A stretch of 64,000 nt of DNA from an uncultured Gammaproteobacteria bacterium (lineage in GTDB: Bacteria > Patescibacteriota > Microgenomatia > JALYQM01). The position numbers were made by a program, and so were the translations under genes. The DNA is taken from positions 712,630 to 776,629 of the forward strand of contig CAYOFQ010000001.1 of the NCBI GenBank assembly GCA_964403585.1, written 5' to 3'. Below, one piece after another: positions 5,037-14,321 of the stretch. The notes under the pieces were generated by a model. That model saw nothing but the letters and a program-made list of their open reading frames with translations, was not told where the DNA came from and searched no databases. The stretch's first letter is position 1. Every line of letters begins with the position of its first letter.

Positions 5037-6557
5037 ATGTTAACAAAAATTGCCTCGGCGGCCATCGTCGGCTTAGAGGCAAAACTCGTCACAATTGAAG
5101 TTGACATACAATCACAGGGCTTGCCACACTTCATCATCGTCGGACTTCCCGATAAATCAGTTGATGAATCCAAAGAGCGTGTTCGCAGCGCGATCAAAAA
5201 TAGCGGATTTGAATTTCCAAACAAGAAGATTACCGTCAACATGGCACCTGCCGATGTTTTTAAAGAAGGTTCACGCTTTGATCTGCCACTGGCACTCGGC
5301 ATACTTGCAGCTTCCGGGCAGATCAATAATACCTCTCTCGATACTAAATTATTTTACGGCGAACTCTCTTTAGATGGCACCATCAAACCGGTACGGGGGA
5401 GTGTATTAATTGCAATCTCAGCAAAAGAAGCCGAAATACAAGAGCTGTATGTCCCGGCAGACAATGCTGCCGAAGCCCGTATCATTGAAGGAAGTAAAAT
5501 CTATGCCTGCCAAAAGTTATCGCAGCTTGCCAACTATTTTAATGAAAAAGAAATACTCACCTCTTTCAGTTACATTCCGGCCGGAACTATCAGGCCAACA
5601 ACCAATTCTACCGATATCGCCGAAGTACGAGGACAGCTCCAAGCAAAACGGGCATTGGAAATTAGCGCTGCCGGTGGGCATAACTGCATCTTAATCGGGA
5701 ATCCTGGCGCCGGTAAAACACTCCTGGCAAAAACTTTTCCATCCATTCTGCCGGATATTACTCCCGAAGAATCAATTGAACTCACCAAACTCTACAGTAT
5801 CTCAGGGTACCTTGATCAAAACATGCCCATAATTACTGAGCGGCCATTTCGGCACCCGCACCATACCGGAAGTGTATCTTCAATAGTTGGCGGTGGATCA
5901 AACCCGAAACCGGGTGAAATTTCACTCGCACATCGGGGAGTTTTATTCCTGGATGAATTTCTCGAATTTCCCAAAGCAGTGCTGGAATCATTACGCCAAC
6001 CGCTTGAGGATGGAACGATGACTGTTTCCCGGGCTGCGCTGACGGTAACCTTTCCGGCAAAATTTATTCTGCTGGCCGCCTGTAACCCCTGCCCGTGCGG
6101 CTATGCATTTAGTACCGAAGCAGGAAAACAGTGCACCTGTTCACAACTTCAACTCGCGAACTATCAGAAAAAACTATCCGGACCGATTCTTGATCGCATT
6201 GATCTCCAAATTAAAATCCGCTCAGTACCGGTACACGAATTAACACAGCTGGAAAGGGGAGAATCCTCTCAGGTAATCCGAGACCGGGTACAAGCAGCCA
6301 GAAGTATTCAAAAGGAAAGACTAACGGGATTACATAAATATACCAATGGCGAAATGACCTCTGAAGAGGTCCAAAAACTCTGTTCATTATCAGGTGATGC
6401 CGCCGCGCTTATGAGCCAGGCAGCGGCTAAAATGAATTTATCAGCCCGTTCATATTTTCGGACAATCAAAGTGGCCCAGACTATCGCCGATCTGGCGGGA
6501 GAAACAGTAATTACCCAACAGCATGTCGCCGAATCACTACAGTACCGACTGAGTTGA
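5037..6557 (+). CDS. comM: YifB/ComM family Mg-chelatase-like AAA+ ATPase
   Basis: Lon-like N-terminal domain (LPDKSVDESKERVRSAIKNSGFEFP, DLPLALGILAA). AAA+ Walker A GNPGAGKT. Cys-rich insert CNPCPCGY. Length is 506 aa. Confidence 0.85.
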   Translation: MLTKIASAAIVGLEAKLVTIEVDIQSQGLPHFIIVGLPDKSVDESKERVRSAIKNSGFEFPNKKITVNMAPADVFKEGSRFDLPLALGILAASGQINNTSLDTKLFYGELSLDGTIKPVRGSVLIAISAKEAEIQELYVPADNAAEARIIEGSKIYACQKLSQLANYFNEKEILTSFSYIPAGTIRPTTNSTDIAEVRGQLQAKRALEISAAGGHNCILIGNPGAGKTLLAKTFPSILPDITPEESIELTKLYSISGYLDQNMPIITERPFRHPHHTGSVSSIVGGGSNPKPGEISLAHRGVLFLDEFLEFPKAVLESLRQPLEDGTMTVSRAALTVTFPAKFILLAACNPCPCGYAFSTEAGKQCTCSQLQLANYQKKLSGPILDRIDLQIKIRSVPVHELTQLERGESSQVIRDRVQAARSIQKERLTGLHKYTNGEMTSEEVQKLCSLSGDAAALMSQAAAKMNLSARSYFRTIKVAQTIADLAGETVITQQHVAESLQYRLS

Positions 6558-6595
6558 AGGTCGCCTCAAAACACATTTAGTGATACTATTGAAAT

Positions 6596-7495
6596 ATGAA
6601 AGTATTACTTACCGATGTTACCGGTGTCGTCGGATCGCGTGTTCTGGATATTCTCTTAAAAAAGAATCATGATGTTTACGTTCTGGTGCATAATCCTGCA
6701 CGTCTGGAAGAGTTCCAGCACAAAGGAGTTCATGCCTTGAGCGGCAATGCCGAAGAAAACGGATCGTGGCTTGGCCAGTTACCGGAGGAACTTGATTATG
6801 TGATCAACAGTATCGTCCCCCAACTGCCTGCCCGTGTATCACTCAAGCAAATCGAGGAAACGTACGCACCTCTCATGTTTAATATTACGAAAAATCTACT
6901 CTATGCAGCAACAAAAACTAAAGCCAAACACTTTTACCAAACAGCCGACGCGCACATCTATCTCAATACCGGTAATGTTGTCAACGAACGCACCGGATTC
7001 AACCGCGATGCGGGTAATTACGGCAGACTATTTATGGAGATGATTCCCTATGTGCAAAGTCAGAAGGGAATTCCTGTCACGGTTTGTGTCCATGGACTTA
7101 TATATGATTCAACAGGGAACACCATCCCCGAAATTCCGGCCACTGCCGGACGGTTGCCAATAGTAGGCGGCGGTGAAAACTTTATGCAACTCACCCATGC
7201 TGATGATTTAGCTGCCGGAATAGTATTTGCCATTGAGAAAAATTGTGAGGCGCCTGTACTCAACATTGTTGATGACAAACCGGTAACTCAAAAAGAATTT
7301 ATACAAATACTCGCCATGAAACGTCAGCAAAGTACTGCACCGGTACCAAAATTTTTAGCTACACCCTTATTTGGCGAAGTACTGACTAATACCTTATCTG
7401 AATCGCTCCAGGTTAATAATGATGACCTCAAAGCAATGGGGTATTGGCTGAAATTCCCTGATATACGGGCCGGATTTGCACTCGGACTTACTTGA
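6596..7495 (+). CDS. NAD(P)-binding SDR family protein (NmrA/epimerase-like)
   Basis: N-terminal Rossmann motif LLTDVTGVVGSRV. Length is 299 aa. Confidence 0.6.
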   Translation: MKVLLTDVTGVVGSRVLDILLKKNHDVYVLVHNPARLEEFQHKGVHALSGNAEENGSWLGQLPEELDYVINSIVPQLPARVSLKQIEETYAPLMFNITKNLLYAATKTKAKHFYQTADAHIYLNTGNVVNERTGFNRDAGNYGRLFMEMIPYVQSQKGIPVTVCVHGLIYDSTGNTIPEIPATAGRLPIVGGGENFMQLTHADDLAAGIVFAIEKNCEAPVLNIVDDKPVTQKEFIQILAMKRQQSTAPVPKFLATPLFGEVLTNTLSESLQVNNDDLKAMGYWLKFPDIRAGFALGLT

Positions 7496-7802: not shown

Positions 7803-8969
7803 ATGAATACAAAAAAAATAGTTGTTCTCAGCCTCGCCGGCTTGCTTGTACTCGGATTATCAATTTTCGGTGCTTATTCTATAACCAAATATATTAATAC
7901 GCCAAACGGTACCGAACAGACCTCATCCAACACACCCCAGCCAACAATAACCAAAGTTGATGCTGAAAGTTACTGCCCGTTGAACGGCAAAAAATACACC
8001 ACCGACGACCAGCTCGCCTGGGAACAACGACATCCGGTTGCTGTTATGATCGAGAACCATCCGGAATCCCGACCGCAATCCGGATTAACATCCGCCGACG
8101 TCGTCTACGAAGCGGTAGCCGAAGGTGGAATTACCCGCTTTATGGGAGTTTTCCTCTGCGAGCCGACACCCAAAGTAACCGGACCGGTGCGCAGTGCCCG
8201 AACCTATTTCCTTGACTGGCTTTCCGAATACAATGCGTTTTATGCTCACGTCGGCGGTGCTAACTCTGACGGACCAGCCGATGCGCTGCAGCAAATTAAA
8301 GATTATGGCATCAAGGATTTCGACGGGATCGCCGGGAATGTCTCGGTCGGTTTTTATCGTGACGAAAACCGGAATCCCGATGTCGCCTACGAGCACACCA
8401 TGTATCTGGATGTCGACCGTTTGCGCAAATATGCCAAAGACACGTTCAACTGGGATGCTAAAATTAACGGTGCCCGCTGGGACAGCACTTTTGAAAAATG
8501 GAAGTTTATCGACGCTAAAACATCACCAAAGCCGGCTACCAGAGAAAGCTCACCTGCCGCCACAATTGCCTATCAATTTTGGGATACTTCAGCCAATCTT
8601 TTTAATGTCAAATGGACCTATAACCCTCAGACTAAAGAATACTCACGCGAAATGGCCGGTCGACCGCACGTCGACAAAAACAACAATGAGCAAATTAAAG
8701 TTACTGATCTCATCGTAATGCTTCAGGAAGAAAGCCGGGCTGATGACGAGTATCACGACAATTTGCATTTACTATATAAAGACATCGGGACAGGTGAAGC
8801 CTATATCTTTATGGACGGGAACATGATAAAAGGAACATGGAGCAAGTCCGGAAGGACCGCCAAAACCAAATTCCTCGACTCTTTTGGACAAGAAATACCC
8901 TTGGAACGAGGAAAAATCTGGATATCAATCGTCCCGACATACAGTAAGGCTACGATTAAGGTCCAATAA
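7803..8969 (+). CDS. DUF3048 (YerB-like) lipoprotein/secreted protein
   Basis: Signal/TM N-terminus. PVAVMIENHPESRPQSGLTSADVVYEAVAEGGITRFMGVF and RSARTYFLDW blocks are characteristic of DUF3048. Confidence 0.6.
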   Translation: MNTKKIVVLSLAGLLVLGLSIFGAYSITKYINTPNGTEQTSSNTPQPTITKVDAESYCPLNGKKYTTDDQLAWEQRHPVAVMIENHPESRPQSGLTSADVVYEAVAEGGITRFMGVFLCEPTPKVTGPVRSARTYFLDWLSEYNAFYAHVGGANSDGPADALQQIKDYGIKDFDGIAGNVSVGFYRDENRNPDVAYEHTMYLDVDRLRKYAKDTFNWDAKINGARWDSTFEKWKFIDAKTSPKPATRESSPAATIAYQFWDTSANLFNVKWTYNPQTKEYSREMAGRPHVDKNNNEQIKVTDLIVMLQEESRADDEYHDNLHLLYKDIGTGEAYIFMDGNMIKGTWSKSGRTAKTKFLDSFGQEIPLERGKIWISIVPTYSKATIKVQ

Positions 8970-9003
8970 CTCATAACACTACTCCTGCCCGAAAGGAGAA
9001 CCT

Positions 9004-9585
9004 ATGCTGAATGATCTATTTATCTCTAAAGTTCGGGTCAAAATGTTGCAGCTCTTCATGCTGAATCCCACTCAAATGTTCCACGTCCGTGAAATAGTTC
9101 GTCAGGTCGACGAAGAGATCAATGCCGTTCGCCGCGAACTGCAGCGTATGGAAAAGGGTGGCATGGTTCGATCCGAATGGCGTGCCAATCGCCGTTATTA
9201 TGAGTTCCGTAAAGAGTATCTCTTCTATTCCGAACTTCTTGCCATGATGAATAAAATTGGTGGCTTAGGCGGGGAAATTATCCAAAATCGTGCCAAACTC
9301 GGGAAGGTTAAGTTTGCGTTTATCTCAGGAGGGTTCGCCCGCGGCAAAAACCCCGGCCCCAAAGACGTCGAACTCCTCGTAGTGGGAACAATCGTGCTCC
9401 CGGAGCTTTCGGCACTGGTAAAAAATGAAGAAGTGAAGCGCGCTCGAGAAATTAACTATACCGTCATGGCCGAAGATGAGTACAAATACCGCGTTACCCG
9501 TCGTGACCCCTTCATTTTAGACGTTCTGGAACGTCCGCGCATCATGCTGATCGGTGAAGAAGAAGCCCTTTTGGCTGACGTGTAG
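9004..9585 (+). CDS. wHTH + minimal nucleotidyltransferase domain protein
   Basis: N-terminal winged-helix-like region. C-terminal FISGGFARGKNPGPKDVELLVVG resembles the Pol-beta-type NTase GSxARG...D.DL motif. Confidence 0.45.
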   Translation: MLNDLFISKVRVKMLQLFMLNPTQMFHVREIVRQVDEEINAVRRELQRMEKGGMVRSEWRANRRYYEFRKEYLFYSELLAMMNKIGGLGGEIIQNRAKLGKVKFAFISGGFARGKNPGPKDVELLVVGTIVLPELSALVKNEEVKRAREINYTVMAEDEYKYRVTRRDPFILDVLERPRIMLIGEEEALLADV

Positions 9586-9599
9586 AATATCCCATAGTA

Positions 9600-9628
9600 T
9601 TGACATATAGGTTAAAGTGTGGTAATAT
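9600..9628 (+). promoter_or_regulatory. Consensus sigma70-type promoter (TTGACA-17-TAATAT)
   Basis: TTGACA at 9600-9605, a 17-nt spacer, TAATAT at 9623-9628. Confidence 0.55.
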
Positions 9629-9634
9629 AACACT

Positions 9635-10117
9635 ACCTTAAGAGTAGGTGAACTCAATTTGAGCTCAACTCTGCTCGAGAGGGGTGAGTTTAAGCCCACT
9701 TGCACATTCACACGAGAGGCAGATTACTCCTAATCTACGGAACGGGAAGTAGTCCAACGAAGCTTCTTGTTGAATAAACATCAAACCTCGCCACTATGTA
9801 CCGGCTCCTAAAATAGGAGGAAGGTTAAGGCCTCGCAGACCCTGAGCTCAAACTCAGGCCAATTTGCGTAGGTGTTATCTTCATTTTTCTCGAAATATTT
9901 GTTGTGCTAAGCCAAGGTCGCTTCCTTTTATCCGAAGCTCACCTGAACCGCGGCTTGTAGCCCCGGTTGACTAAATTGCCATCTCGGATTTCCGAGTATC
10001 TTTAGCGACTGAGTCTACAAGCCGCGACTCAAAGTGAGTTTGAAACCCTGCAGAGGTTTCAAGTACGTACTCTGTACGTATCAAGGCTATGTGCATCACT
10101 CATAGGAGGCTTTACTC
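9635..10117 (+). promoter_or_regulatory. Long (~480 nt) highly structured non-coding leader / candidate large ncRNA
   Basis: No ORF longer than about 20 codons on the + strand. Several stems are present: a long-range 12-bp helix cgcggcttgtag/ctacaagccgcg (~9950/~10016) that encloses the hairpin ctcggatttccgag, plus hairpins cctgagctcaaactcagg and tgaaacc..ggtttca. Confidence 0.35.
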
Positions 10118-10372
10118 ATGTCCACGATCATCACAACCACCAACACCCGCCCGCTCAACCCGATCCTGACAGCACGCCAGCAGCTTCCCCGCGAAATTCG
10201 CCTCGGCCAGATTTGCTTTTACGAAGGCACCCTCGCCGAACAGGCCGAGTTTGCGCTGGAGATCCTCGAGAATTTCGAAGCTGCGTACGTTCCGTCGGAC
10301 GAAGGTGATGACTCCGATGTCGTTATGACCTGCGAAGGTGAAATCGATATGGGGCCGTGCCTGAACCTGTAA
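10118..10372 (+). CDS. Small acidic hypothetical protein (84 aa), GC-rich coding
   Basis: Strong RBS aggagg with 8-nt spacing. Codon usage is GC-rich (about 57% by eye) against an AT-richer neighbourhood. No homology recognised. Confidence 0.45.
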   Translation: MSTIITTTNTRPLNPILTARQQLPREIRLGQICFYEGTLAEQAEFALEILENFEAAYVPSDEGDDSDVVMTCEGEIDMGPCLNL

Positions 10373-10472
10373 GCTAGACCGGCAGCGCCGATCTGTTGAG
10401 CTTTGGAGCTCTGCTTCACTGCAATATACAGATCGGCGTCAGCCATCAAACAACAAACAAAGGAGAAAAACA

Positions 10473-10589
10473 ATGAACGATAACAAGATACGAGCAAAAG
10501 AAAAGAAAAATAACTTTAGACGTTTGAGTCTAAACTATATTTACCATTTACTTTTACTTCATATTTCTTTTCCACTCCGCCTCTCGTGA
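10473..10589 (+). CDS. Unannotated 38-codon small ORF (MNDNKIRAKEKKNNFRRLSLNYIYHLLLLHISFPLRLS)
   Basis: Consensus RBS aaaggag 7 nt upstream of the ATG. The N-terminus is basic and the C-terminus hydrophobic. It is below the ORF-track length cutoff. Confidence 0.3.
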   Translation: MNDNKIRAKEKKNNFRRLSLNYIYHLLLLHISFPLRLS

Positions 10590-10663
10590 CTTGTTTCTTA
10601 AATATGATAACTATTGTATTTAAAGAACAGGGTAAATAAATTATAATTTAACTAGGTAAAAAT

Positions 10664-11632
10664 ATGACCGAAGTAATTGACTATCCAGGTATTGAAATAA
10701 CACAATACACGCCGCCAAAGGAACGTTTTGTTGTTACGGTTGATCATTCTGAACTTTCGCGTGCGCAAAAAGTCGCAGGTATAGTTAATACTGTGCAACC
10801 CGATTTTGTCCGCGTTGCTCCACAATTTGATAATGAAGGCAAGATTGTTACGAGCTTTGACTTTCACGAAGAAATACCCGGTTGCCGAGGTGAATCAGCC
10901 GATATTTTCATTATGCTTTATGATTTGGCTGAAGCCTTAGAGCTAAGCCCAAAGGTCGAAGATCCAACTTCTACATTTGCGGACCAAGAGCAACAAATAA
11001 ATAATCTCGTGCGAACCAAACTCGATTTGTATCTCGAACAGAAGCGAGCGGTACAAGAAGCGAACCGTGAAGCTGAAAATAATAGACTCAACATCGCGAC
11101 AGAACCTACCTCGGAAGGAATTGACTCTCATATTTATATTGATACTGATCTTGATACTCGTGCCACCCTCCGTTTAGCAGACCGCGCGGCATCACTTGTT
11201 TTTGCAGAATTTATTAGCAACCGCACATTAGATATGTCTGAAGTGCGAAAACTCAGTATGTACCTAAGAATGGATTTGCCTGAATTAATTGTGAATACAG
11301 TCGAGGAAGAAGGCAAAAAGGGTACTCAAACAGCAGATGTGGGCATTAATTTTGCTCAAATCACTGGTCCCGACTCGTCTCAGGTACTCGAAGTAATGGT
11401 ATTTGATAAAAATAACCAATATCCTGAAGAAGTGCTTAAGCAGCTCAACAAGAACGATCTTCCAAAGAGAATCACATCAAGTAAAGAGTCCGAGGTGGAG
11501 GGACAAGATCGGGGCCACGGCTTAGTAAAGGTTATAAGTGACGTAAGAGAAGAGTTGCAAGGAAATATACGATTCGATAATACAGATACAGGCTCGTATG
11601 TGAGGATTACTGTCCCTCTCACTAGAAAATAA
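10664..11632 (+). CDS. Protein with C-terminal HATPase_c (anti-sigma-factor kinase RsbW/SpoIIAB-like) domain and an uncharacterised N-terminal domain
   Basis: C-terminal GHGLVKVISDV...GNIRFDNTDTGSYVRITVPL matches the G2/G3 boxes of GHKL ATPases. An upstream ATLRLADRAASLVFAEF block fits the RsbW-type N-box. Confidence 0.5.
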   Translation: MTEVIDYPGIEITQYTPPKERFVVTVDHSELSRAQKVAGIVNTVQPDFVRVAPQFDNEGKIVTSFDFHEEIPGCRGESADIFIMLYDLAEALELSPKVEDPTSTFADQEQQINNLVRTKLDLYLEQKRAVQEANREAENNRLNIATEPTSEGIDSHIYIDTDLDTRATLRLADRAASLVFAEFISNRTLDMSEVRKLSMYLRMDLPELIVNTVEEEGKKGTQTADVGINFAQITGPDSSQVLEVMVFDKNNQYPEEVLKQLNKNDLPKRITSSKESEVEGQDRGHGLVKVISDVREELQGNIRFDNTDTGSYVRITVPLTRK

Positions 11633-11663
11633 TTCACAAATAGAGTATACTACTATCACATTA

Positions 11664-11689
11664 CATACGTCTCGCAACGTATGTTTTTT
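11664..11689 (+). terminator. Rho-independent terminator
   Basis: acatacgt-ctcgca-acgtatgt hairpin followed by TTTTTT. Confidence 0.5.
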
Positions 11690-11724
11690 GCTGTTATAAG
11701 GATAAAATTGCACAAGGAGTTCAT

Positions 11725-11952
11725 ATGCCCGAATCCCGCAGTCACGGACATTTAATTATCGGAATTGATCAAAGAGGATCCGAAAAAATAGGCCGACCTG
11801 CTTCCGGAAGTGCAACCGAAGGTCCCGCTTTTTTCTTAACCGAGGCACCCCCCGCACGACGCGCACTTGCAGATAATACAGCCATAGACATTAAATCAGG
11901 AACTGGTGCCGGACGGGTGGACATTTCCGGTGGTCCGGTAACGCGTCGCTAA
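11725..11952 (+). CDS. Small Gly/Ala-rich hypothetical protein (75 aa)
   Basis: RBS aaggag. No TM segment, so it is not YajC. It lies immediately upstream of secD. Confidence 0.35.
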   Translation: MPESRSHGHLIIGIDQRGSEKIGRPASGSATEGPAFFLTEAPPARRALADNTAIDIKSGTGAGRVDISGGPVTRR

Positions 11953-11990
11953 TTGACTCTCACCTCAAATAAAAATATAATACCGCCATT

Positions 11991-13403
11991 ATGGCACAAC
12001 ACAACCGCTACGCGAATAAACCGCACACCCAAAAAACAGGACGCCCTATTCGGATGTTCATGTTCGTGCTTCTGGTATTCGTCGCTGCACTTATATATAA
12101 CCTTCCTCAGACTAAAATAAACCAGACAATTTTCGGCAAAAAAATAGAAACAATTGGCGGATATAACATCCTTGGTCGCCCGCTGGAACTCCGCCGCGGC
12201 CTCGATTTACAAGGCGGTGTCCAGTTAACGCTGCAGGCTGATATGAAAAATATCGCCGAAAAGGATCGCCAGCAGGCATTGGATTCGGCTCGTGATGTTA
12301 TTGACCGTCGTGTGAATATGTATGGTGTTTCCGAACCGGTAGTACAGTCCGCAAAATCAGGTAATGATTACCGCGTTATTGTTGAACTCCCCGGCGTCAC
12401 CGATATGGACGAGGCCATGAACCTGGTTGGCCGTACCGCACGGCTCGAATTCCGCGAACCCGACGAGTCAACCGAAAGTGCTGAGGCACAGATGCGTGAA
12501 GCCACTGCTTCGGCAATGTTGGGACTTGATGCTTCGACAGCAGCACAATTAAAAGAGTATATTGCTACACAACCCCGCTACAAATCCACCGAACTTACCG
12601 GAAATGAATTAAAACGTGCAACAGTTACCTTTAGTCCGCAAATCAACGAACCACAGGTGAATTTGGAATTTAAAGATAAAGGAACAAAACTGTTTGCCGA
12701 TCTAACGACTAAATATGTTGGTAAAACTATCGCAATTTATCTTGATGAAGAACAGGTGAGTGCCCCTCGCGTGAATGTACCAATCACCGATGGTAATGCA
12801 GTCATTTCAGGCGGGTTCACCGTTCCACAAGCGCAGCAGCTGGCCACCCAGTTAAACGCCGGTGCCTTACCGGTGCCTATTCAGGTCATAGAACAGCGAA
12901 CCGTCGGCGCAACTCTGGGAAACCAGTCGGTTGAACGCAGTATTATTGCCGGCGCGGTCGGGGTCGGACTCGTCGCGCTGTTCATGTTAGCGTTGTACGG
13001 ATTCCAGGGATTTCTGGCCGACATCGCCCTGGTTCTCTATGCATTGATCTCGTTATTCCTATTCCGGTTTATTCCGGTAACCTTAACCCTGGCGGGAATC
13101 GCCGGATTCATTTTGTCGATTGGTATGGCGCTGGACGCGAATATCCTTATTTTCGAACGTATTCGTGAAGAAATCCGCTGGGGTAAAAGCCGTAAAGAAG
13201 CACTGCGACTCGGATTCAGCCGTGCCTGGTCGTCTATTCGTGACTCCAACGTCTCTTCGCTGATTACCTGTTTTATTCTCTATAGTTTTGGAACCGGTAT
13301 CATTCGGGGGTTTGCACTCACTTTGGCAATTGGTATTTTTGTATCACTGTTTACCGCGATTACGGTAACCAGAACTTTGTTGCACATGTTTTATCGGGAC
13401 TAA
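11991..13403 (+). CDS. secD: protein translocase subunit SecD
   Basis: LDLQGGVQLTLQ and IAIYLDEE...SAPRV motifs. Six C-terminal TM segments of the RND-like SecDF fold. Confidence 0.9.
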   Translation: MAQHNRYANKPHTQKTGRPIRMFMFVLLVFVAALIYNLPQTKINQTIFGKKIETIGGYNILGRPLELRRGLDLQGGVQLTLQADMKNIAEKDRQQALDSARDVIDRRVNMYGVSEPVVQSAKSGNDYRVIVELPGVTDMDEAMNLVGRTARLEFREPDESTESAEAQMREATASAMLGLDASTAAQLKEYIATQPRYKSTELTGNELKRATVTFSPQINEPQVNLEFKDKGTKLFADLTTKYVGKTIAIYLDEEQVSAPRVNVPITDGNAVISGGFTVPQAQQLATQLNAGALPVPIQVIEQRTVGATLGNQSVERSIIAGAVGVGLVALFMLALYGFQGFLADIALVLYALISLFLFRFIPVTLTLAGIAGFILSIGMALDANILIFERIREEIRWGKSRKEALRLGFSRAWSSIRDSNVSSLITCFILYSFGTGIIRGFALTLAIGIFVSLFTAITVTRTLLHMFYRD

Positions 13404-13406
13404 TAT

Positions 13407-14321
13407 ATGAACTTTGTTAAACATAAAAATATCTTCTTCATTATCTCAGGCTTACTGATTTTGCCGGGATTAATTTCGCTATTCACCAAAGGCCTCCGGC
13501 TTGGTATCGATTTTACCGGCGGTACTTTGATGGAAATTAAGAGTGATAAATTTAACTCCGGTAAATCTGACGAGATCCGTAATCTTATTAAGTCTCAGGG
13601 AGTTGAAGTTTCTTCCATTCAACAGTCAGGTGCTAATTCATTCATCATCCGATCCAAAGAAGTTAAGCAGGCTACGGACACAAAAATACTGGAAGAGCTA
13701 AACAAAAAATACGGCAAGGTTGAACAGTCACGCTTTGAAACAGTTGGGCCAACTATCGGTGCCGAATTAACCCGCAATGCCTTTATGGCCGTGGCGGTCG
13801 CGTCTACATTTATTGTGGTGTATATTGCCTGGAGTTTCCGCGAAGTACCGAAACCCGCCTCCAGCTGGAGATTTGGCTTAACGGCCATTGCCGCGCTTCT
13901 GCACGATGCATTATTTGTACTGGGTGTTTTCTCCATCCTCGGCTGGGCGTACGGAGTGGAAATCGATTCGTTGTTTGTTACTGCGTTGCTCACTGTTATC
14001 GGATTTTCGGTTCACGATACGATTGTTGTGTATGACCGGATTCGTGAGAACCTGATCAAAGGCAAGGCTGCTAATTTTGATGACACCGTTAATTTGTCGA
14101 TTTGGGAAACCCTTGCCCGTTCCATTAATACCTCGGCCACTGTTATTATCGTGCTCACCGCGCTACTGCTTTTTGGCGGTGAATCAATCCGCTGGTTTGT
14201 TTTTGCCTTATTGATCGGTATCGTTTCAGGAACCTATTCTTCCATTTTCAACGCTGCTCAATTGCTGGTGTTGTGGGAAGATTATTCCGAACTGAAAACA
14301 TTGCCGAAAAATCAAAAGTGA
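13407..14321 (+). CDS. secF: protein translocase subunit SecF
   Basis: GIDFTGGT motif and C-terminal TM bundle. It follows secD with a 3-nt gap. Confidence 0.9.
   Translation: MNFVKHKNIFFIISGLLILPGLISLFTKGLRLGIDFTGGTLMEIKSDKFNSGKSDEIRNLIKSQGVEVSSIQQSGANSFIIRSKEVKQATDTKILEELNKKYGKVEQSRFETVGPTIGAELTRNAFMAVAVASTFIVVYIAWSFREVPKPASSWRFGLTAIAALLHDALFVLGVFSILGWAYGVEIDSLFVTALLTVIGFSVHDTIVVYDRIRENLIKGKAANFDDTVNLSIWETLARSINTSATVIIVLTALLLFGGESIRWFVFALLIGIVSGTYSSIFNAAQLLVLWEDYSELKTLPKNQK

Follow-up and report, generated by a model that had tools for sequence, protein, structure and literature searches.

Open reading frames upstream of secDF in a Microgenomatia genome as probable variable cargo of a mosaic insert headed by a structured RNA

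In a 64,000-nucleotide (nt) stretch of a Microgenomatia genome (the window; contig CAYOFQ010000001.1, positions 712,630 to 776,629), four consecutive plus-strand open reading frames (ORFs) precede the secDF genes, and we named them o84, o38, o322 and o75 after their lengths of 84, 38, 322 and 75 amino acids (aa). An earlier note, made from the letters alone, had proposed that these ORFs (10118–11952) form a small-protein partner-switch or peptide-processing module, and its ORF coordinates and quoted peptide strings proved exact. Comparison with related genomes leads us to favor a different reading, namely that 10118–11952 is probably not one module but the variable cargo of a clade-specific mosaic insertion of ~2.4 kb (9586–11990). 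Absence of the small ORFs at homologous loci, which the note had named beforehand as speaking against its module, is what the gene-neighborhood comparison revealed: o84 is missing from every homologous locus, unrelated ORFs occupy its place, and the HATPase gene is found in only two of the five insert-bearing genomes. The most interesting part of the insert is a conserved, unclassified structured RNA upstream of the ORFs, and this finding is well supported.

According to the mosaic reading, the insertion would have entered a permissive junction that is otherwise closed in Candidate Phyla Radiation (CPR) and Microgenomates genomes, and it would bring a conserved scaffold consisting of a promoter, the ~400-nt RNA, a hairpin, an A-rich element, an intrinsic terminator and the secD promoter. 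A first slot, directly behind the RNA, would hold a hypervariable small ORF with a high GC content at third codon positions (GC3), here the ORFan o84. A second slot would take optional cargo, which in the window and in one relative (L084; L numbers are our labels for related loci) is a predicted soluble, stand-alone GHKL protein of the histidine-kinase catalytic and ATP-binding (CA) type. In this scheme o322 would bind ATP and act on some partner, whether as an ATPase, as a Ser/Thr-type kinase or by non-catalytic binding, while o75 would encode a small, fast-changing protein that is expressed on its own. The locus would thereby comprise three or more expression units, each with its own evolutionary past, that are neighbors because the junction tolerates insertions, and not because they work together.

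Conserved flanks and variable content of the junction

The gene order DUF3048, o193, secD, secF (window 7803–9585 and 11991–14321) is near-universal among 81 CPR loci. The gene o193 (9004–9585), of winged helix-turn-helix (wHTH) and nucleotidyltransferase-like type, ends directly before the insert, and secD and secF start at 11991 and 13407 on the plus strand. The end of o193 lies less than 300 nt from the secD start in 74 of the 81 loci holding both genes, and the junction is also closed in L089, L092 and L093, whose SecD proteins show ~70% identity. In the window, by contrast, ~2.4 kb (9586–11990) is inserted between o193 and secD, and a version of this insert occurs only in four close relatives, L084, L086, L087 and L088 (SecD 80–83% identity). 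Relatives were fetched via their SecD proteins, and the insert-bearing set comprises the window plus four relatives (n = 5). The best SecD matches among species representatives, including Gottesmanbacteria and Levyibacteriota, are ~52% identical and place the genome among the Patescibacteria (CPR) of the Microgenomates type, and a metagenome scan with a SecD alignment added no new members, the relatives among the matches listed being all at most 56% identical. The locus, part of a 1.57-Mb NCBI contig, is not an assembly artifact, since two SRA assemblies made independently agree with it letter for letter over 2.4–21 kb.

The gene content of the insert differs in each of the five genomes. In the window, the RNA is followed by o84, a hairpin, an A-rich element containing o38, o322, a terminator and o75. 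The L084 insert has the RNA, a 114-aa ORF with a signal-peptide-like N-terminus (signal-peptide-like and hydrophobic-segment calls were made by eye from the protein sequences throughout), the A-rich element, a 220-aa HATPase (P0002), a 77-aa ORF and a terminator. In L086, an AbiEii/AbiEi pair on the opposite strand precedes the RNA, a Cys-rich 74-aa ORF with a signal-peptide-like N-terminus, the hairpin, the A-rich element, an 83-aa ORF, the terminator and a truncated o75-like ORF. L087 likewise has AbiEii/AbiEi and the RNA, followed by a 99-aa ORF with a signal-peptide-like N-terminus, the hairpin, the A-rich element, the terminator and an 86-aa o75-like ORF, and has no ORF in slot 2. The L088 insert is reduced to a minimal RNA of ~175 nt, with a U7 terminator at its end, and an ORF of 119 aa behind it.

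The same gap is filled in yet other ways elsewhere. L013 (5635–7857) and L019 (6332–7861) carry there a single ORF of 740 or 509 aa, respectively, while L100 (6353–7671) and L107 (6990–7809) carry two proteins, one of 147 aa and HTH-like, the other small and by eye resembling CopG/BrnA. As the different fillings across lineages show, the junction accepts insertions, and the insert has a mosaic makeup. Its ends show no terminal repeats and no target-site duplication, and no recombinase or integrase was found.

Two further observations concern the neighbors of the insert. The AbiEii toxin gene and a 212-aa gene at the AbiEi position (L086 3808–5212, L087 3936–5340) lie in the interval from the o193 homologue to the RNA, on the other strand, and the window has neither of them. 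The o193 protein matches the PADLOC candidate PDC-M05A (E = 7e-38); because of its near-universal synteny, o193 looks like a housekeeping rather than a defense gene.

The structured RNA, slot 1 and the elements downstream

The structured RNA, which is the structured leader of the earlier note, occupies 9634–10036 on the plus strand, its start being placed from the upstream promoter; promoters and transcript ends are given here as consensus matches or as deductions from conservation. The predicted promoter (9600–9628, plus strand) is of the sigma-70 type, TTGACA-17-TAATAT with a TG extension (10/12 plus TG in the scan), and is kept in L084, L086, L087 and L088. Just 5' of its −35 box stands the motif CCTATAGT (9590–9599), which is invariant in the five genomes and occurs twice in L088 (6063–6073 and 6106–6116); it may serve as an operator or a UP-like element, perhaps one used by the neighboring wHTH protein o193. 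A 5' and a central domain of the RNA are followed by a long 3' hairpin (9948–10034) with an invariant core, UGUAGCCCCGGUUG...CUGAGUCUACA. Counted with the promoter, its copies span 9600–10036 in the window, 17–455 in L084, 5348–5760 in L086, 5483–5908 in L087 and 6108–6322 in L088. RNAalifold applied to the four full-length copies gave 85 pairs, of which 11 show compensatory changes. Within the 3' hairpin, compensatory changes were counted at 13 of 34 pairs, a value reached by none of 500 shuffles, and slid controls gave 0–3. The RNA is conserved more strongly than the coding sequence around it.

Searches with nhmmer recovered the RNA only in L084, L086 and L087, plus the truncated L088 copy, which is a minimal ~175-nt form with its own U7 terminator. 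The 4227 models of Rfam 15 gave no match at E ≤ 1 over 9000–12500, nor at E ≤ 10 over 9590–10120 with the sole exception of a chance match to an archaeal snoRNA on the opposite strand, and no match at gathering score was obtained in the window or its relatives. Pattern scans for the RNA in viral contigs (two patterns) and in Joint Genome Institute (JGI) metagenomes (one pattern) gave no match. Within the sequence searched, it is confined to this locus of these genomes. RNase P RNA, tmRNA, SRP RNA, 6S RNA, riboswitch, T-box and group I/II intron were each considered in a by-eye review and rejected, because ARAGORN reported no tmRNA and Rfam gave no match.

With OLE, ROOL, GOLLD and raiA-type RNAs, the RNA shares a length of a few hundred nt, a strong promoter, a multi-domain covarying structure and a conservation above that of neighboring coding sequence. 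Unlike these classes, it has no Rfam match, is limited to five closely related genomes and in four of them runs into a translated small ORF. To our knowledge, non-coding RNAs have hardly been described in this lineage. We regard the RNA as the more valuable lead of the locus, as it heads a slot of hypervariable small proteins, many of them signal-peptide-like, which could play a part in the episymbiotic life of these bacteria.

In the window, slot 1 is occupied by o84 (10118–10372, plus strand), which encodes an acidic protein of 84 aa behind an AGGAGG ribosome-binding site (RBS). The earlier note had remarked that o84 is GC-richer than its neighbors, and indeed it has 58% GC vs 28–43%; its GC3 is 0.71, compared with 0.34 for o38, 0.35 for o322, 0.36 for o75 and 0.48 for secD. 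We treat o84 as coding because of its good RBS and its strong in-frame codon signal of +0.35 bits/codon, for which the known genes of the window give +0.26 to +0.31, o322 +0.19, o75 +0.16 and o38 −0.02; a GC1/2/3 periodicity is also present. None of the four ORFs has a match at E ≤ 1 in Pfam, NCBIfam, PADLOC or PHROGs, and among 5.8 billion clusters o84 finds only itself. o84 has no signal peptide and ends in a Cys-containing tail. Its N-terminus, MSTIITTTNTRPLNPILTA, looks to the eye like a decayed signal-peptide-like stretch.

Only the first ~10 codons of o84 and its flanks align with the slot-1 ORFs of the relatives, while the body is unalignable, also against L086. The slot-1 ORFs of L084, L086 and L087 are unrelated to o84 and have signal-peptide-like N-termini, and that of L086 is Cys-rich with a bacteriocin-like composition. 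In every genome the slot-1 ORF has a Shine–Dalgarno (SD) sequence, and its stop codon lies just 5' of the hairpin. Despite the unalignable proteins, the GC3 of slot 1 exceeds that of secD in the same genome by 0.21–0.29 in all four genomes: 0.71 vs 0.48 in the window (10118–10369), 0.50 vs 0.29 in L084 (500–820), 0.64 vs 0.39 in L086 (5821–6042) and 0.64 vs 0.35 in L087 (5965–6261). GC-richness is a trait of slot 1 and not of o84 alone.

Directly after the slot-1 stop codon lies a hairpin (10381–10444, plus strand), which had been noticed before as a perfect 10-bp inverted repeat at 10388–10443. The repeat is real and its dimensions were slightly off: the perfect arms are 11 nt long (10386–10396 and 10428–10438) and belong to a 12-bp stem with three more basal pairs. 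The hairpin folds at −35.3 kcal/mol (z = −4.4), and none of 200 shuffles folds as well; the z values are −7.0 in L086 and −5.3 in L087. At the base of the stem, GCGCCG(A/G)U...A(U/C)CGGCGC, the pairing is kept through compensatory changes. Because it has no U-tract, the hairpin is probably a 3'-end stabilizer, a processing site or an attenuator, and not a classical terminator.

Behind the hairpin, o38 (10473–10589, plus strand) is a 38-codon ORF within a conserved A-rich nucleotide element. The RBS ascribed to it earlier is present (AAAGGAGAAAAACAATG), and four genomes can be aligned over its first ~30 codons. However, substitutions relative to L086 are spread evenly over the codon positions (5/8/8), in contrast to 14/2/101 in o193 and 84/37/265 in secD as control genes, and the o38 region is conserved beyond the synonymous sites of secD. 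The frame in which the conserved DNA at the 3' part of o38 is read varies from genome to genome, and a small hairpin inside the ORF (10515–10521 and 10528–10534) keeps its pairing via compensatory changes. On account of the even substitutions, the shifting frames, the covarying hairpin and the coding score of −0.02, the constraint on o38 acts on the nucleotides and not on a protein, and a protein under selection is probably not encoded. It is possible that a short Lys-rich peptide is translated from it.

The unit holding o322 is closed by a predicted intrinsic terminator (11663–11690, plus strand; ACATACGT-loop-ACGTATGT, then a T run), which was picked up in the terminator scan and is kept in L086 and L087. 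Next comes o75 (11725–11952, plus strand), with an AAGGAG RBS and a Gly/Pro/Arg-rich product of 75 aa that has no signal peptide or hydrophobic segment. o75 shares its RBS, its start codon and a motif G..F(F/L)L.E.P with the ORFs that L086 and L087 carry at this position; the rest diverges fast, the L087 version having 86 aa and the L086 copy being truncated or frameshifted. This pattern suggests that o75 is probably a real, weakly constrained and fast-evolving small protein. It ends 38 nt before the secD start, and the space is filled by a predicted secD promoter (11953–11981, plus strand; TTGACT-17-TATAAT, 11/12 in the scan) that is invariant in L084, L086, L087 and L088 and also present in L090. 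As this promoter ends 9 nt before the ATG and secD has no SD, the secDF mRNA is probably leaderless. Since secD has its own invariant promoter, the upstream ORFs are not a leader for secDF. Taken with the nucleotide-level constraint on o38 and the differing GC3 values, the separate promoter-like sites, the hairpin and the terminator speak against the unity of the proposed module.

o322, a divergent GHKL-type protein

The C-terminal region of o322 (10664–11632, plus strand, 322 aa), comprising 183 residues (140–322; 11081–11632, plus strand), is probably a divergent GHKL domain of the histidine-kinase-type ATPases, as judged from motifs and modeling. Since o322 itself misses Pfam HATPase_c (no match at E ≤ 1), the assignment needed indirect support. 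A word-index search of the 5.8-billion-cluster collection returned only o322 itself, and phmmer against 1.84 billion representatives returned one true homologue, P0002 from L084, which aligns with residues 139–319 (E = 1e-15, 33% identity); the other phmmer match, P0003, was rejected as a spurious repeat protein. P0002 reaches HATPase_c at E = 1e-5 and 26.3 bits, 0.1 bit under the cut-off of 26.4, and alone has no match among PDB sequences. A two-sequence profile of o322 and P0002 found only CheA P4 domains in the PDB, with o322 RGHGLVKVI...GNIRFDN.DTGSYVRITVPLT aligning to CheA P4 RGVGMDVVKNVVESLNGSISIESEKDKGTKVTIRLPLT at E = 0.036. No relatives of o322 turned up in phage records (tblastn), and a GHKL profile found none in viral contigs.

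The motifs are only partly canonical. ELIVNTVEE (residues 207–215), which we take to be the N box with the Mg-binding Asn, aligns with ELIVNSIEE of P0002. A Glu four residues before the N-box Asn (ELIVN) is a trait of ATPase and Ser-kinase type GHKLs. The G1 box DxGxG is not kept in o322, which reads D248-K-N-N-Q, the Asp being retained and both Gly lost, whereas P0002 has the canonical DKGDG. Both proteins share a G2-like R-G-(H/N)-G-L and terminal strands G-S-Y-x-x-(I/V)-x-(V/I)-P-L. An AlphaFold2 (AF2) model of residues 140–322, built on the two-sequence alignment, has a low confidence (predicted local distance difference test, pLDDT, 53; predicted template-modeling score, pTM, 0.53) and shows the expected bb-aa-bb-a-lid-a-bb order, with a β-hairpin and a helix preceding the GHKL domain. 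The 50 top Foldseek matches of this low-confidence model in the PDB are all histidine-kinase-type CA/HATPase domains, the best being CckA (E = 2.6e-4; template-modeling score, TM, 0.45). The GHKL fold seen by the earlier note thus receives weak to moderate support, while the anti-sigma-kinase type that it had proposed does not: HATPase_c_2 is absent from the Pfam matches of o322 and P0002 at E ≤ 10, and the best folds are ordinary histidine-kinase CA domains.

The N-terminal region (residues 1–139; 10664–11080, plus strand; coding score +0.23) is absent from P0002. It is novel as had been claimed, in that its ~140 residues have no detectable relative in Pfam, NCBIfam or the PDB, where the best match has E = 0.46; the ATP synthase epsilon and TerB matches at that E-value were rejected as chance. 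It is predicted to be β-rich with a long helix (AF2 pLDDT ~50). With the idea of a fusion in mind, it was compared with the small ORFs of the relatives and showed no significant similarity to them. Foldseek, which the note had suggested, was informative for the C-terminal domain and not for the N-terminal domain or the whole protein; the gyrase A and protein kinase matches of the full-length AF2 model (pLDDT 47) were rejected (TM < 0.2).

A classical two-component role of o322 is unlikely, because its G1 box is degenerate and it offers no phospho-acceptor His. With the CA domains of CckA, ThkA and CheA (P4), o322 shares a predicted β/α sandwich, the N-box Asn, RGHGL and the C-terminal G-x-Y-V-R-I-T-V-P-L strands. 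Unlike histidine kinases, it has DKNNQ in place of DxGxG, stays under the Pfam cut-off and carries an orphan N-terminal domain of 139 aa. It has no H-box or dimerization and histidine phosphotransfer (DHp) domain and no HisKA match, the helix before the CA domain (105–139) is without His, and neither a sensor nor a hydrophobic stretch long enough for a membrane span is present. No response regulator is found among the called genes of window 664–21632 (~10 kb either side), to which the gene-neighborhood annotation refers. With SpoIIAB/RsbW (HATPase_c_2), o322 has in common that it is small, soluble and stand-alone, that a strand and a helix precede the N-box helix, and the Glu-x3-Asn; unlike them, it matches neither the family model nor a PDB sequence of this type, and no STAS, PP2C or sigma factor gene lies within ~10 kb on either side. 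The lack of a STAS protein and a sigma factor had been stated correctly before.

A promoter-like site (10619–10647, plus strand; TTTAAA-17-TATAAT, 10/12 in the scan) lies 5' of o322 and is predicted to be its own promoter; in L084, TGCTATAAT stands at the corresponding position 5' of the HATPase gene. Together, o322 and P0002 represent a tiny, extremely divergent branch of histidine-kinase-type ATPases without a phospho-acceptor domain, and they are of modest interest for the reuse of GHKL domains in reduced CPR genomes.

Alternative readings of the locus

A partner switch, with o322 as an anti-sigma Ser kinase of the SpoIIAB/RsbW kind and o84 or o75 as its antagonist or substrate, is improbable. 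The soluble nature of o322, the β-hairpin and helix before its GHKL domain as in stand-alone GHKL kinases, the N-box Glu four residues before the Asn and the small, acidic o84 upstream would all suit it. However, neither o322 nor P0002 matches HATPase_c_2, the PDB profile and fold searches lead to CheA and histidine-kinase CA domains and not to SpoIIAB, the G1 box of o322 is degenerate, STAS, PP2C and sigma genes are missing within ~10 kb, and o84 has neither a STAS match nor a homologue. Moreover, L084, with its homologous HATPase, has an unrelated 114-aa signal-peptide-like ORF instead of o84. That ORF and its counterparts in two further relatives, small, hypervariable and signal-peptide-like, one of them Cys-rich with a bacteriocin-like composition, would rather suit an agr/com- or RiPP-like cassette (RiPP, ribosomally synthesized and post-translationally modified peptide), in which the slot-1 product is exported or modified and the GHKL protein is a sensor, kinase or maturation factor; the Cys-containing tail of o84 fits this as well. 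We nevertheless give such a cassette very little credit. The HATPase is missing in three of the five genomes with slot-1 ORFs, o84 has no signal peptide, o84 and o75 match no leader-peptide family in Pfam or NCBIfam, and o322 has no membrane-length hydrophobic stretch, no DHp or H-box and no response regulator nearby. In addition, the Pfam families of the neighborhood (664–21632) include no modification enzyme, protease or ABC exporter. Hardly credible is a secretion monitor like VemP, SecM or MifM, with o75 or a slot-1 protein stalling ribosomes to tune secDF. As in those systems, a small ORF stands directly upstream of a Sec-pathway operon, o75 ending 38 nt before secD, and relatives have signal-peptide-like small ORFs upstream of secDF. 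A VemP-like role of o75 is unlikely, though, because secD has its own promoter, invariant and lying between the two genes, and o75 lacks a signal sequence and any hydrophobic segment. Unlike the known cases, secD also has no SD to mask, most relatives have no ORF at that place, and the slot-1 ORFs are separated from secD by the hairpin, the terminator and ~1.5 kb.

We also considered that the small ORFs o84, o38 and o75 are all non-coding, with 9635 to ~10600 forming one structured RNA and o322 being the only real gene. For o38, constrained at the nucleotide level and without coding signal, this agrees with the data, the o84 region is GC-rich and flanked by conserved RNA structures, and o84 and o75 have no homologues. 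As a whole it is very unlikely, given the codon signal, GC1/2/3 periodicity and AGGAGG RBS of o84, the SD and the stop just before the hairpin in every slot-1 ORF, the signal-peptide-like N-termini in three genomes, and the start, RBS and short peptide motif of o75 that are kept in L086 and L087. A defense or addiction cassette would be a small selfish or mobile unit in which an RNA regulates a toxin/antitoxin or abortive-infection function and the GHKL protein serves as an optional effector. This reading is unlikely, with more in its favor: AbiEii/AbiEi sits in the same gap of L086 and L087, a CopG/BrnA-like small protein in that of L100 and L107, and the neighbor o193 matches PDC-M05A (E = 7e-38). 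Variable content with ORFans is typical of defense islands. The locus further resembles such hotspot accessory islands in its conserved flanks and its mosaic codon composition. Yet none of the four ORFs is a recognizable defense gene or matches PADLOC or PHROGs. The signs of mobility expected of an island (an integrase or other recombinase, terminal repeats, a target-site duplication) are missing, the patterns used for the RNA gave no match in viral contigs or JGI metagenomes, searches of phage records and viral contigs gave no relatives of o322, and o193 is a near-universal syntenic gene, not island cargo. Unusually for an island, the variable slots are set between conserved elements, namely the RNA and regulatory hairpins.

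Several points weigh against the mosaic insertion as well. The insert is known from five genomes only, so that presence/absence statistics are thin, and both genomes with the HATPase have a small ORF before it and a ~75-aa ORF after it, by which a loose functional link is possible. Also, a single transcript could cover all of 9635–11690. The GHKL call behind slot 2 depends on a borderline hidden Markov model match of a 33%-identical homologue and on a model with pLDDT 53. On the contig of P0017 from JGI sample 3300071325 (68% SecD identity; gene calls only), the gap that separates secD from the o193 homologue comprises 412 nt free of genes, an ORF of 94 aa and ~1.5 kb in which no gene was called, and from this layout the RNA-led insert may be older than the 80% clade. 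Finally, the term permissive junction describes a pattern and leaves the roles of the RNA and the proteins unexplained.

A more specific proposal, which we put forward tentatively and hold to be rather doubtful, is that the RNA, the hairpin and the A-rich element are an undescribed RNA-headed expression scaffold of one Microgenomates-type CPR clade, into which unrelated small ORFs, many of them signal-peptide-like at the N-terminus (slot 1), and optional cargo such as the GHKL protein (slot 2) are swapped or within which they diversify. The RNA itself would be a functional non-coding RNA, as the minimal ~175-nt form of L088 with its own terminator suggests. If this were true, the GC3 rise of slot 1 would point to frequent recombination or to a special constraint on that segment of the mRNA.

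For annotation, the locus illustrates that adjacent unannotated ORFs are not to be read as an operon-level system, and that a comparison of gene order among relatives here tells the conserved part, the RNA with its regulatory scaffold, from cargo that is interchangeable. A minor observation concerns the ORF behind the minimal RNA of L088. There, 6416–6888 holds a 12-codon ORF with a strong RBS and a TAG stop, followed by the coiled-coil-like 119-aa ORF, and the two may be one gene split by a stop codon or by a sequencing error.

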